A stretch of 64,000 bases of DNA from Microthyrium microscopicum (Eukaryota): assembly GCA_010405405.1 (NCBI GenBank), contig MU004237.1:1189345-1253344 (forward strand), given 5' to 3'. How positions within the stretch are numbered: the stretch's first letter is position 1; the number at the start of each line of letters is the position of its first letter. A model generated the notes under the pieces. The model worked only from the letters and a program-made list of their open reading frames with translations. It had not been told where the DNA came from and ran no database searches. The translations under genes were made by a program, and so were the position numbers. Shown here piece by piece: positions 6,110 to 13,649 of the stretch.

Positions 6110-7115
6110 TGGTTGAGAGGGGAAGAGGAGGAAAGTGAAGAGCTGATTGATATTTATCATTTCTAAATATTGTTTTAACTTAGTTGCATTACTTGAAGGC
6201 TTCAAAGGGAATGAAGCATGTATTATATGAGGTTACGCGAAAGGACGCGCTATGGATTGGTAATGAGCATTGGTATGGTGGTTCATGTTGGGCGTTTTTG
6301 TATTGGGCTGTCTGGCATTGGAAGCCAGACTTGTTATTATTTGCAATGAAAGTGCTTCCTCTCATAATCTTTCCCCATCTCTTGAATATGTGGCAATGCT
6401 GTGAAAACTAGTTGATGTCGCCTTGCGACTCGAGCTGAATGAGTGTATGTCCGTCCATAGGTCAATAAATGGAACTCATGGCAATCAATGGCCAAAAAGT
6501 CACGATGTCAAGATATGGAAGCATTTCAAAATATAAGCAGTGATATTCCTACATGCAAGCATTATGATACATTAGCATTCATACCAGTCCTTGTCCTCCA
6601 ATGTCTCCCAGGTTGAAAAATGCTCTCGTAGTATTCTGATACATGATTTTTAGTGATGCTTTAAGTTCCGTCTTTAGCCCAAAGCAATTATTGACCACGC
6701 CCCCACCGCCGATGTGTAATTCTAGAGTGCTAAGTCCTACTGATAAAAGACTCCATGAAATCAATGAGCCCGCCGTGATGATAAATGAGGAAAGGCCAAT
6801 GAGACAAGTCCGAAGGGCCGATGCTGACAGAAATAGTAGATAAGTCCAGGCTTCCGAGCACAAGGTAAGCGAGGATAGTTGATACTGGATAGTTGTGGTG
6901 GAAAAGGATAGGCCGGACTCGAAAGAAAGATTTTCCAAGAGCAATGGCAACGAAGGATAAAAGTCGTAATAAAACCAGAATAGATAGAGCTGCCAGAAAA
7001 GATGCCGTTCGTTGAAAGTGTATTCGTCGCTGAATGTATGCTGATCAAGTGTGCATGCGTAGAATGGTTCAACAAGACCAGTAGCAAGAGGAAGAAAGCA
7101 TGAAGATGGTTTTCA

Positions 7116-10047
7116 TCAGGTCTTGCTGCGAGATGGACCACCAACTGGACCGAATTGGCGAGGACCTCTAGCATTGTACGTATCGTCATCCCGGTCTCGA
7201 CGACTGAAGCGGCGACCAAGACCCTCGCGCCAACGGCGGCCAACGCCCTGAGAAGAATTAGAGCCATCCATGCCCGAAGGACTGCCGTCAACTGAGCGTT
7301 CATGGCTATTGGTAGGACGGAAATGACGAGTGATGTGCTCAAGACGTTTGCCTGGAGACGAACGTTTGGGAGAATCCGGAGACTTTGACGACAACACTGG
7401 ACTTCCAGCAGTTGCAGCGACCCCGCTGATATGGGGTGCACTTCGGATTGGAGGCAGAGAAACGGTTGGAACATTCACAGGCTCTGATTGATTGAAAGCG
7501 CTGTTAGCAAATAAGTTTGAGTGGTAGTCGCGTTGCCAACCTGAATGTTGATCGGACGGCTGGGAGCCATTGTTGCCAGTTGAGGTGGAGTGACGACTGG
7601 AGTTAATTCTGTCAATTATCGCCATATTTTCCATTCGTCGAGCCTCTTCATCAGGCATTTGGTCAAAAGGCTTTGAAAACTCGCCAGAGGAGTTTGAAAG
7701 ATAGGCCATGCGTTCGAGCATATTGATATCCGAACGAGTTTGAGCAGGCATGTGTTGAGCTGGAGGCGTGAGTCCGCGATTACCGGCATATCCTGCCAAG
7801 CCTGAGCTAGGTGGTCCTTGCCTTGCGAGTTGATGGAGTTGTTTGGATGAAGCCTGGAACTGGCCCATTGGACCAGATCGTGCAAGCGGGCCATCACCGG
7901 GAAATCGTGGGACATGAGAAGATCGAGCTGTATTCTACAAGAGCTCGGATCGATCATTTTCCATGAGTGGAAACGACCCAAGTGGCTGCTGGGCTTCCAT
8001 TGCGAAAACCGGGATTGGATTTGGATGTGGCTCGATGGTCTCCGCAGAGCTGGCGTCACTCTGTGCACTACCTCGAAGGGCTTTGTTCAAGCCATCACAA
8101 TAGCCTTGTAGCCAATCTTCGTTCTTGGTCATATTGGAAGGTCGTTTGGATAAGCCAACGAGATAGCCTAGTGTGTACTGGTTGGATTTGCCATCCAAAG
8201 TATGTAACATGGCATCGCTTAGCAGGAAAGATTCTGTGAAGCCTCCCTTGGCGCCATCATCTCCTTTGGGAATCTGAGAAAAGTCAGCACCGATTCGTGT
8301 AAAGAAAGTTTTCGAGATTGGCGAAGAAAAGAATTCACAAAGGTCAGGCTTACCACATCGTTGGGGGAATTGAGCACCTGTTTCTTGGCTGTGCCTTCAT
8401 ACTTGGTCAACGAGTGCTGCTCCGGAGCCACCGGGAAGAAATCAGTCGTTGTCACGCTTGAGCGCGACTTACACTCATCGTCCTTAGCTTCCTGTGTGGT
8501 TGACGTCTTTTGTTCACCAGAAGATTCCTTGCCTGGAGTACGCAGCTCCATTGGCTGATAAGCTGGAGATCTTGGATTCAGACGTGTCGAAGTGGAAGTC
8601 TTGAGCTCGTTCTCCAGTGGGTCCCGAATTGGAACAGCATGCGTACGTTGGTCACGCTGTTGGGTGGGCACATTCTCAACAGGATAGCGATTGAAAGAAG
8701 GAGCCATTGGAACCGGAATGGCTGAAGGGATGGGTGCTGAGACTGGCGTGACTTGAAGTGGACGCTCAGGTGGTGTTCCATGCTCAGCAATATGCTGAGA
8801 TATGTACTCATCGCGTTTTGACGTCAGCTTTTCCAAAGTCTTGCGAAGTGTATCGAGTAAAAGTATGACCTCGCATTTGGAACGAACAAGTGCCTGTTTT
8901 CGTTCAGGATCATGGCCTTCACGAACCTCTCTCTGCTCCAAAGACTTCTTCACTGCTTCGAAACGAAGCTTTGTTTCAGTGACTCGATTGATCTCGTCAT
9001 TAACGTCAACACGCAAAGGATTCTCCTGTTCATCGGATTGGGGTTCCAAGCGTCCAAGGTTGCTGTCGTCAGCAGCGTTCCCGAGACGAGCGTATGTTTC
9101 GTACAGTGCGGAGTGATTCGCAACAGGTACATCCGGAAGCTTTTCTGTGGCCCAACCGCTGTCATAACCATTGAGATGAAGACCACGAATCATGTCCAAG
9201 TGAGCAGTGTAGATTGGATGGTTGCTAGGATGCATCGAGGCAGCGTTTGGATGCAGAAGATGATTCCCAAAACCGTTCGGACGAAGCATGGGGAAGTTGC
9301 CTTCGTCTATCGGATAATGAGGGAAAAGAGGCATCTGAGGGTAGCGAGGATGTCGTCTCGCCTGGAGGAATGAGTTTTCCAACTCGGCTCTGGAGAGAGG
9401 CTGGCGATCGGGAAACCAATGATCACCGTATAGAACGCGATCAGCCTCTGCCTCGATGTCAGGAACGGCCTGTAGGTTGAGTTTGACATCGGTAGGAACA
9501 ATTCGGCCACCAGCAGTGACACGAACTCCAGGAGGGGAGCCATGCTCCTTTAGAAGCTTTTCAGCCTTGTCTCGCTTGAGAGAAGGTGATGGAGATGGTT
9601 TCTTCTTGTCAGCAACGGCTGGAACCGTAAGAGGGGAAGGTGATTGTTTGTTGTCAGAGTTGACAGTTGAACTGTTGTCTAAACCGTTTGCAAGGCCGTT
9701 GTCTACACCGTTTGCAATGCTGTTGCCAGAGACATGCCCTAAACTGTTGCTGGAGGCCTTGGCTGAGGTGCTGGTAGATGGACTAGATTTCATCTTGTAT
9801 GGGGCAAGGGAAGAAGGAACTCTATGGAGAGAGGTGGAGGGTCGTAAAACGTGTTCTCATCATACATTTAGCCACTTCAACCAGCTGCAAAGAACGGCTG
9901 TTACATACCTTTGATGGATTCCTCTGAAGGGAAACGATCCAAGGACACCGTTGGCTCCGGTCCCGACTCTCGTAGAGCTAGCAGTTCCTCCACTTTGTAT
10001 GCAGTGCGAAAATTACCGCCCTTCGGACGAGCAATAGGATCTTGCAT
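7116..10047 (-). CDS. Unknown low-complexity/coiled-coil fungal protein with an internal in-frame UAG at 7937-7935 (659 aa to the UAG; 932 aa if read through)
   Basis: Inferred exons 10047-9909, 9855-8354 and 8273-7116 (donors GTATGT and GTAAGC) join the ORF-track pieces in frame (YKVEELLALR...EHVLRP...LKEHGSPPGVRVTAGGRIVP...TTTDFFP...GYCDGL). ORFs 7935..8210 and 7116..7868 share one frame and are separated only by a TAG. Start codon uncertain. Confidence 0.7.
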
Positions 10048-11320
10048 CTTCTGATTGATGAACGTATTGAATGGACTGCGTCGTGGCGAAGCAATGGGTT
10101 GATTGGCAATGAAATGAAAGGCGAGTAGACGATCTGCGTAAACAGTGAGCTCAAGCTCCTGACAGAGATACATAAAGATGACAGACTTTGTTGATATGGA
10201 CAAATGTTTCAAAGAAGAGCCGGTGGTTCAAACTGAATTCTATTCTCGTTAGTGATGATCTTCGTGAATCGCCAGCATTGTCTATGGATCAGTCCCAAGC
10301 AATGTTGGAGTTCTGTAAACATACCTGCATATGCAAAAAACGGCAGCACAGTGCTGAGAAATCAATGACCGTACAAGCGGACGTGGGACACAAAAGAAGG
10401 CAAAGAATCGGTGAAGCGATGAACAAAGACAATGAGTGGATTGGGAAGAAGATTGACGATGAGTTGAAGAAGAGTAATCGAGATGATCGGAGGAGGAGAG
10501 AAGTCATCTAAACACTTGTGAGCTTTGGAAGCTATATGCGGCTTCTCCTGCGTCTCATTTTGTGATACACCTGCCAGGTACTGCTCTGCCGTTACGCTTG
10601 AAACTGATGAGATGAGGGACAGCTGCTATCTGGAAGTTCATCTATGAAACGACGTGGAAAGATGAGCAGGTGAAGACAAGTCGTGGATCATCTCGAATAA
10701 GGATCAATGGAGACAAAGTAGAGAACCCAAATTTGATGGCCAGAGATTCCCACTCTTTATGGTGAGACTTGGCAACAGCCATCCTCATTCTCTCGCGCAT
10801 TTTGCACTCCACGGCAAGACCTACATCTCTCCTTCCACGCTCTTTGGAACCCTCTGGAAGTTGTTGGCCCAGCATACCGCTGCTGCGACATCCAATCGCT
10901 AATTGAACATCAATCTTGCCTTGACAGCGTAATTTATATACAATGGATAACGAGCAGGAAACAAGAGTACAACGAGTAATGCCAATGACAATTGGATAGA
11001 GTCCTTCTTGCAATCTTACCAACTTGCTCTTTCAGGGGCTCGGATAAACAGCGATTGACGCGGCCCGAACTTCGGCTCACCACTAGGCTGAGCGCAAGGC
11101 TGTTGTCAGCAGCCGGAGCAACAATGCAGGTTCTACCCAATGTATTAGGTCTGACAGCTCGGTGGTGTCGAATCATCTTTGCAGAATGAATCTGCTGAAA
11201 AACACGCACACAGTCCGAAACATTGCACACAAAGATAAAGGTAGAGCAAAACAACAGCAAATGGGTATCTTGTTCGAAATAACTCACTAACAAGGTCACT
11301 ACCTTCCTATTTTGCCCTCT

Positions 11321-13649
11321 CTATCGACGTCTGACTGGTGGCGCCGGCTCAAATGCGTCTTCATCATCATCAATGCCATCATCGCTAATCTCAACCACTT
11401 TCTTCTGGGCCGCCGCGCGTCTTGAAGGTGCCCGCGTGCTGGTCTGGCTCGAAAAGTCTAGTGTTCCCTGCTTCATACGACTCGCCGCTGCCGTTGCCAC
11501 CTTTCCACGTGCTGATGGTGTCTTGGTTTTTGTTGCTGGTCTAGCTGCTGGTGCTGCACGACGCTCGCTGACGAACAAATCTTCCTCCTCCTCTTCATCG
11601 TCGTTGATGACCATGTCGGCGTCAGATTCTTCATCCTCGTCTTCTTCGTCATCGATGAATGCTTGAGCTTTCTTGCGACCGCGAACAGGCGCCGCTGGCT
11701 TTTTGGCTGCAGCGGTGGTAGTTTTGCGTGTTGACGCAGCAGCGCCTGCGCGACCACCACGACTGCCACGACCGCGTCCACGGCCTCGAGCAGTTATTCT
11801 AGCTGGCGGAGGAGCTGGTTCAGCGTCGAGCATCTCGTCATCGCTGCCTTGCTCTTCATTTGAGATCATGGCGGCGGGGTTATCTTCCCAGTGGCCTTGC
11901 TCGTCGCTGTCCCAGTCGTCGGGCTTCTCCTTGAAACGACCAGTACTACGCGGAAGGCGAGAATGACCATTGGCGAAAACCTCCTTCATCTTAGCCTTTT
12001 GTTGATCTATCATTGCGTCGAGGTGGTCCATGTCGATCTTGTCTCCGTGAGTAAAGTTCTTCTCCAGATCCTCGATTGCTGTCTCGACCGTGCTTTTCAC
12101 ATATTCTTTGATGGCTGTGTATTCGACCTGACCAATGTATCGATTTATGGTGTCGGCAAGAGAGTTTTCGGGAAAGACAGATAACTCTTGGGCGAGTAAA
12201 AACTCGCGAACCATATCTTCCACCTTTACGTTGACAGGATCAAGGCTCAGACTCGCAATGACTTCTTCATCAGGCTCATCAGCGTCTTCTTTACTCCGTC
12301 GGGCGGCTTTTTTCTTTTGGTGATAGAGAATGACATCGTCGTGGTTGGCAATCTTTTCAATGTACTCGTTTGTAATGCGCCGCGCATTTTCACAATCGTA
12401 TGTACCTCCTTCAGCAGGTGCTGTGTAATCAACACGCAGTCGAATCAGTGGAAGTGGTGGTATCATATCCTCCTCATGAGCGTCTTCAAGATCATCGCCT
12501 TGTAGGTCAACCCACTTCTGGTTGGCTTCCTCGATCATCTCATCAATAACCTTTTTGAGATAACGTGAAATTTCGGCTCGGTTTCCAGTCTTTTTGGCCA
12601 GCTTCTTGGTCGGCGCTTCTTTCGCCAATGCAATGTCTCTCATCACAAAGGGACGGACACTCTTTAGCCGTATAGGGTCATATTTGAAGTCCTTTCCTGT
12701 GACACTAAGAACGCCAATATGTTTGTCTATGGCTTCACCTGGCATCAACTGGGTTGCAATAGAGGAACCAGGCTGCAGCACTTCAAACCCTTGTGCTGCA
12801 TTGTGTACAGGCGCAGTATTGCAATCATGCTCATGTCCCCATATGACTAGCTGGAGCCAGTCGGGAAGGAAGTCCTCTGGTAAATAGCCTGTCGGCGTTC
12901 TCGCGTGGTGGTTTTGGTGAACGACGAGAAGATTGAACCAGTTGTCTTTTTGGATACTTGGCTGGAAGAATTTGACGTTATTATGGCGAAATTCTCGAAA
13001 TAATCGCTCATCACGAACGTTACTCAAGCCGAACATGGCAAGTTTCGTACGACCTTTTTGAAGGAGTATTGGTTTGACTTCAATATTGTCGTTTTTTGGT
13101 ACTCGGCCAAAATAGTTTATTAGTCCGGTCTCCTGTAGAACGTCGAGAGCACAATAGTACTCGCTGCCCGTGGGCTCATCATGATTACCGTGTATTGAGA
13201 AAACAGGTATAGCAACGTTGATATCTTGATCTTCATAATTGACATGATCAAACATCCTGGAGCATATATTAGACCATTTAAAAAACGAACAGTCCTTATA
13301 CTTACCCGCCAAAGACCTCGCTACCATCGCCCAGAAACTCAAGCTCGCATGGTTTGTCACCAAGGCAATTCATCCTTAAGCTCTTGATGACATTGACCAT
13401 GCTTTTCCGGCTAGGTGTATGTTTGTCGAAAAGGTCTCCTCCAAGCAAGACCATATCGACGTCTCTTTCTTTCGCATGGGTCATGACTTCGTGAAAAGTT
13501 TTCCAGGAATCATCACCTCGCACTGGATGATCTTCTTGGTAGCCGACATGATTGTCTGTGGCAATCAAAATCCGGATGGTATCAGTTTCTGAGAGCATGT
13601 TAGCAGGAGTAGGCAGCGAGTGCATGGGAGGCGTACTTGACGAAGTCAT
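11321..13649 (-). CDS. MRE11: Double-strand break repair nuclease Mre11
   Basis: Exons 13649-13637, 13588-13306 and 13256-11321. Phosphoesterase motifs [34 protein letters not shown]-rich (GAR) and acidic C-terminus. Confidence 0.97.

Follow-up and report, generated by a model that had tools for sequence, protein, structure and literature searches.

The 64-kb stretch of DNA analysed here (the window) carries on its minus strand a gene whose reading frame is broken by an in-frame TAG, and this TAG is a real genomic premature stop that is retained in the mRNA. Judged by comparison with related proteins, the 253 codons which follow the stop are true homologous coding sequence. The leading explanation, to which we give about an even chance, is that the TAG is a young nonsense allele of the strain or species and is not recoded.

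Results

The stop codon and its gene

Read on the minus strand the site is GAG CTC TTG TAG AAT ACA with the A of the stop at position 7936, exactly as a first-pass annotation of this DNA had reported. A six-frame scan of the whole 64-kb window identified only two stops with at least 120 open codons on both sides, this TAG and the stop of the neighbouring MRE11 gene at 11323-11321. Beyond the TAG another 272 codons of the genomic frame (7934-7119) are open before a TGA is reached, and all of these had originally been counted as the extension. A real 57-nt intron within this stretch is itself open and in frame, so that a count made on the genome renders the tail 19 codons too long, and the extension present in the mRNA comprises 253. 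The same spliced intron, lying downstream of the TAG, places the stop in the penultimate exon and not in the last exon as first described. In the alignment with P0024, one of the relatives considered below, this intron sits in a gap.

The corrected model (Table 1) begins with the ATG at 10047, which is the first in-frame ATG past an upstream stop at 10211, and runs through 659 codons to the TAG as codon 660 and then through the 253 codons of the tail, giving 913 codons in total with a single internal stop. Of the two product sizes initially proposed, 659 residues therefore stands for the short form, while the full frame has 913 codons in place of 932. The TAG lies within a transcribed frame which is intact downstream of it; the last exon junction is 394 nt further on, and about 1107 nt of 3′ sequence follow the TAG compared with 345 nt downstream of the distal TGA. 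The exon layout identifies the distal TGA as the ancestral stop. The gene product is Ser/Pro-rich, with 67% polar or disorder-promoting residues, and neither of the two protein queries matched a Pfam family.

Table 1. Features of the interrupted gene, in the direction of transcription, with the basis for each.
Feature	Position	Strand	Basis
5′ leader intron, 85 nt	10240..10324	-	upstream side given only by the loose end of the X5 contig
5′ leader intron, 53 nt	10134..10186	-	skipped in X5
First coding exon	9909..10047	-	X5 transcript; N-terminus agrees with the start of the homologues P0004 and P0015
Intron, 53 nt, GT..AG	9856..9908	-	skipped in X5
Second coding exon, 501 codons, with the most conserved motif of the family	8354..9855	-	X5 and homologues
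Intron, 80 nt, GT..AG (donor GTAAGC)	8274..8353	-	skipped in X5
Penultimate exon, with the premature TAG	7541..8273	-	one transcript contig, unbroken, 0 differences
Predicted stem-loop around the TAG	7913..7965	-	folding; stability no better than shuffled
In-frame TAG, codon 660	7935..7937	-	sequence and transcript contig
Intron, 57 nt, in frame, GT..AG, TGCTAAC branch site, 3′ of the TAG	7484..7540	-	skipped in X5
Last exon, coding part, completing the conserved 253-codon tail	7119..7483	-	relatives and model
Distal TGA, matching the C-terminus of relatives	7116..7118	-	alignment
3′ untranslated region, about 345 nt	6771..7115	-	lower end estimated from the total size of X5; comparison reached 7000

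Transcript and DNA contigs

Contigs of four public runs (X1, X3, X5 and X6) were compared with positions 7000-10300. X5 contributed a single 4085-nt contig, 100% identical to the window with no differences over 2999 nt, which skips the four introns so marked in Table 1, all of them GT..AG on the minus strand, and whose loose end fits a fifth intron further upstream. None of the four stretches is skipped in the DNA contigs, and X5 therefore derives from spliced RNA. Between 8273 and 7541 this one RNA contig is continuous and has the TAG, with A at 7936, so that in the majority of molecules of the X5 sample the stop is neither spliced out nor edited. Since contigs drop minority variants and the stage of the sample is unspecified, X5 leaves room for editing.

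In X6, from a third study (depth about 3), the segment 7729-8091 is covered and likewise reads TAG; X6 shows no differences over 1291 nt and reaches 17 of 30 bins, the parts left uncovered carrying no meaning. X1 and X3 are a possible source of the window itself. The contigs of the three studies (X1/X3, X5 and X6) thus all give TAG and no alternative letter there, which answers the concern over an assembly error raised at the outset. Being 100% identical in sequence they may represent one strain, and for that reason the three data sets are not independent evidence of fixation.

On its upstream side the X5 contig extends 857 nt beyond 10325, with two introns preceding the ATG. The part between 10047 and about 11180 on the minus strand is either a leader of about 1 kb containing upstream stops or a product of the contig having merged this gene with the end of the MRE11 transcript, on its 3′ side.

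The tail and its relatives

An HMMER search against 1.84 billion cluster representatives, with E values up to 0.001, returned six matches, one of them being the open reading frame of the window itself. Nearest among the relatives are P0024 (347 aa, E 4.7e-52) and P0025 (218 aa, E 1.9e-29); each comes from a metagenome contig and is continuous across the position of the TAG, with a sense codon there. A block of 19 residues just past the stop is identical in the window, P0024 and P0025 (PRFPGDGPLARSGPMGQFQ); P0024 has two more blocks near its C-terminus in common with the tail of the window, and a related motif is present in the more distant members P0005 and P0008. The initial impression that the extension looks like protein is borne out by these relatives, which read through the site and share its motifs.

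When the TAG is read as W, a W-W-W column appears in the three-sequence alignment and a W match is obtained by BLASTP against P0025, with no such match by BLASTP against P0024 or in a five-sequence alignment. A conserved Trp at the site was rejected as circular, an artefact of translating the TAG as W: once X stood in its place the match was gone in all eight MAFFT runs, each of which aligned the site to Thr in P0024 and to Leu in P0025. Because the Trp match is circular, the 3-8% share of TAG-creating mutations that arise from TGG carries no weight here. The codon in relatives, a comparison suggested by the first-pass annotation, is accordingly sense, with Thr and Leu and not Trp when X stands at the site. 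As the relatives are continuous across the site, which aligns to Thr or Leu in them, the stop is derived in this lineage. It falls in a linker of variable length that is full of insertions and deletions.

No longer protein was found to match a query composed of exon 3 plus the tail, the exon 2 query gave no usable match in the Atlas, and metagenome scans for the DNA of the relatives, by protein alignment and by degenerate motif, produced no match. The six named homologues are all Dothideomycetes, three of them verified as such and the other three presumably so. Within exon 2 (9585-9700, minus strand) lies the most conserved block of the family, about 40 residues around KKPSPSPS...GSPPG.RVTAGGRIVP, which shows 70-90% identity to Dothideomycete proteins that can scarcely be aligned elsewhere and which belongs to no Pfam family; it may represent an undescribed short motif.

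RNA structure and sequence context of the stop

The stem-loop drawn in the first-pass annotation does form on folding, its outer CAUG pairs included. The segment 7913-7965 folds with -11.4 kcal/mol (z -0.81) and 39 of 200 shuffled sequences fold as well; for 7900-7980, the interval for which folding had been proposed, the corresponding values are -19.9 kcal/mol, z -1.33 and 19 of 200, a hairpin no stronger than in shuffled sequence. The UAG had been placed at the apex of this hairpin. When the 30 nt on either side of the target A were folded, following PMC9600606, the lowest-energy fold showed this A paired, in the A-U pair which closes a GAA triloop, with a probability of 0.52 of being unpaired; it does not lie in a stable hairpin loop. 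Within predicted hairpin loops are 37 of the 91 UA sites in the mRNA of the gene. Since some 38% of known editing sites are likewise found outside predicted hairpin loops, the position of this A is compatible with editing.

The bases flanking the target, G U (A) G A A U, are the preferred ones at -1, +1 and +3 and depleted ones at -2, +2 and +4, according to the Fusarium preferences from -2 to +4 set out in section 6 of PMC9600606. With known editing sites the UAG has in common a U at -1 and purines at +1 and +3. The U at -1, G at +1 and A at +3 to which attention had been drawn originally are all present, and the first two add nothing, as they are true of every UAG. No Rfam element was detected at the TAG. 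The sole Rfam match in 6500-10500 lies elsewhere, at 9762-9893 on the plus strand and hence antisense to the gene, and resembles mir-133 only weakly (22.1 bits where the gathering score is 55.5, E 0.12); it is taken as chance.

The neighbouring MRE11 gene

The upstream neighbour (11321-13369, minus strand) is a homologue of MRE11, whose relatives carry the Pfam families PF00149 and PF04152. Its own TAG is followed in the same frame by 128 open codons, rich in Cys, Phe and Leu, and this extension does not resemble protein and is probably open by chance. The MRE11 of the window is 49-54% identical to Dothideomycete, Lecanoromycete, Eurotiomycete and Sordariomycete sequences, while five of the pairs compared between or within those classes show 60-69% identity. 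A tree was built from the window and 16 of the 35 MRE11 proteins found, picked for their names or high scores from a set of 35 that consists of long or fused predictions only. In the best tree the window falls beside the two Sordariomycetes, a weakly supported grouping (53/72); trees that place it with the Dothideomycetes (p-AU 0.22) or beyond the classes sampled (p-AU 0.37) are not rejected. For MRE11 the Atlas resolved no further than the phylum, and matches in the PDB did not help to place the host.

Discussion

A nonsense allele of recent origin would account for the observations in the following way. A recent point mutation would have created the TAG in the penultimate exon of a gene that is transcribed and correctly spliced; ribosomes would stop after 659 codons and release a product without the conserved tail of 253 residues, and the exon layout would make the mRNA a candidate for nonsense-mediated decay. 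Both the recency of the mutation and the absence of recoding are what we infer. The locus does present a single disabling mutation, which is derived relative to intact relatives. The intact 253-codon tail, its motifs and its working intron fit a nonsense allele, as these are what a recent mutation leaves behind; by our rough reckoning, a tail that is not translated could remain open until neutral divergence reaches about 2%, and no longer. RIP was considered as the cause of the TAG and rejected, no RIP signature having been found in any of the 32 two-kilobase bins of the window. Against a nonsense allele it may be said that a lone UAG, a conserved tail and a disordered hypothetical protein also make up the profile of the stop-corrected pseudogenes of Fusarium. 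PMC10776026 describes 71 of these, 71% with disordered regions and 43 of them hypothetical proteins, in which the corrected TAGs arose by one mutation, mainly from TGG and often from other codons. A nonsense allele and a pseudogene restored by editing predict the same DNA, and no observation separates them; the former is rated above the latter because the MRE11 tree leaves the class of the host unplaced and because the structure of the hairpin is unremarkable.

Under editing, a tRNA-type deaminase active in the sexual stage would convert UAG to UIG, read as Trp, and only then would the 913-residue protein be made, a reading which we hold as possible with a good deal of doubt. In vegetative cells the gene would be off or its product truncated, and equally tentatively it may be taken for a premature-stop-corrected pseudogene of the Fusarium/Neurospora type. 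The structural prerequisites are all in place, namely a UAG in the mRNA, a conserved tail with a spliced intron and intact relatives, and with the stop in a variable, indel-rich linker a Trp should be tolerated. PMC9600606 describes the combination of flanking bases seen here, favoured at -1, +1 and +3, as one in which many editing sites lie, and PMC10776026 reports disordered hypothetical proteins to be over-represented among stop-corrected pseudogenes, whose transcripts occur also in hyphae; the present protein has its large share of polar or disorder-promoting residues and no Pfam family. Set against this, the one transcript contig shows no RNA-DNA difference, the hairpin does not rise above chance and has the A paired in its lowest-energy fold, of the three preferred flanking bases two come with every UAG, and the Trp match with relatives is circular. 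The Ame1-Tad3 interaction that enables editing arose within the Sordariomycetes, according to PMC11087585, and membership of the host in that class would appear unsupported on the sequences compared. The first-pass annotation had interpreted the stop as a recoding site; of the four results that it had named as refuting this, three were looked for and none overturned it, while the fourth, a strain-specific nonsense allele with no recoding, is rated here as the likelier reading. The only RNA contig has A at 7936, and the hairpin and flanks are unremarkable.

How far the host may be expected to edit depends on its class. As summarized in PMC11156358, mRNA editing has been reported only in Sordariomycetes and in one Pezizomycete (Pyronema), with none detected in Aspergillus nidulans or Botrytis cinerea. 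A literature search for editing beyond the known classes found no report from Dothideomycetes, Orbiliomycetes or Lecanoromycetes. That A-to-I editing in the sexual stage turns this UAG into UGG in an ascomycete outside both the Sordariomycetes and the Pezizomycetes must on balance be considered unlikely. If true, it would constitute a third, possibly independent, lineage with restorative stop-codon editing, and a gene whose conserved tail switches on only in reproduction. Editing, once demonstrated, would bear on the question of which filamentous ascomycete classes edit their mRNA, as framed in a 2024 review (PMC11156358), and on whether editing arose more than twice, a point raised by PMC11087585. 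The locus is well defined for a test of editing, with one nucleotide (7936), verified exons and a detectable conserved tail. Should the TAG prove to be a plain nonsense allele, it would signify the ordinary loss of the C-terminus of an uncharacterized protein, of local interest only. Annotation of the gene should keep the stop visible and not mask it with an invented intron.

Translational readthrough, in which some ribosomes would decode the UAG with a near-cognate tRNA and continue to the distal TGA, is improbable. Basal readthrough occurs at any stop, and the open and conserved downstream frame speaks for it here. Stimulated readthrough is associated with a stop followed by CAR-YYA, or with UGA-CUA, and the context UAG-AAU-ACA fits neither motif. 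The stem contains the stop itself and does not start some bases 3′ of it, and no Rfam element was found at the site, so that neither a leaky stop context nor a downstream stimulating structure was found. A suppressor tRNA encoded in the window was also considered and rejected, as a scan of the 64 kb detected no tRNA gene.

Removal of the TAG in a minor splice isoform is a good deal harder to credit. Two routes may be conceived, the 75-nt GTTTTC...TTGTAG intron at 8009-7935 that the first-pass annotation had named as a possible refutation of its own reading, and the use of the same TTGTAG acceptor with the donor at 8353, which would skip 339 nt or 113 codons. Both removals keep the frame, and contigs do not exclude rare isoforms; against them, the X5 contig is unbroken between 8273 and 7541. 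The 75 nt encode Q95, Q96, G99, L103, E105, N106 and R108, which are invariant in the two relatives, and the proposed intron is refuted since it would delete these seven conserved residues. Its splice signals are poor as well: GTTTTC is without the G at +5 that is present in four of the five verified introns (the fifth, 8353-8274, having GTAAGC), and no CTRAC branch site is visible in the stretch. The alternative intron from 8353 would measure 419 nt, five times the 53-85 nt seen in this gene. An intron carrying the stop was rejected on these grounds, the stretch being present in mature mRNA and conserved as protein. Least credible of all is a sequencing or assembly error concealing a true sense codon, in favour of which nothing was found and against which X1/X3 (possibly the source of the window), X5 and X6 (depth about 3) all read TAG.

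The preferred reading, a young nonsense allele, places this gene among strain-specific nonsense alleles or unitary pseudogenes, which it resembles in its one disabling mutation, its intact downstream frame and relatives and the continued production of its mRNA. No feature observed here departs from that class, of which the stop in FLO8 of laboratory yeast is an example. With the fungal stop-corrected pseudogenes it shares a single in-frame UAG in a transcribed and otherwise intact gene, intact orthologues and a disordered hypothetical protein. It differs from them in being known without an editing event and in that its A is not in a hairpin loop of the lowest-energy fold; their hosts, moreover, are Sordariomycetes and a Pezizomycete, whereas the MRE11 tree does not place the present host there. 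A further comparison is offered by stop-loss editing of DBF2 in F. graminearum, as reported in PMC13123824, where, as would be the case here, a change of UAG to UGG extends the protein. In DBF2 the edited codon is the normal stop and the extension is new, whereas in the present gene the stop is premature and the sequence beyond it is the ancestral C-terminus.
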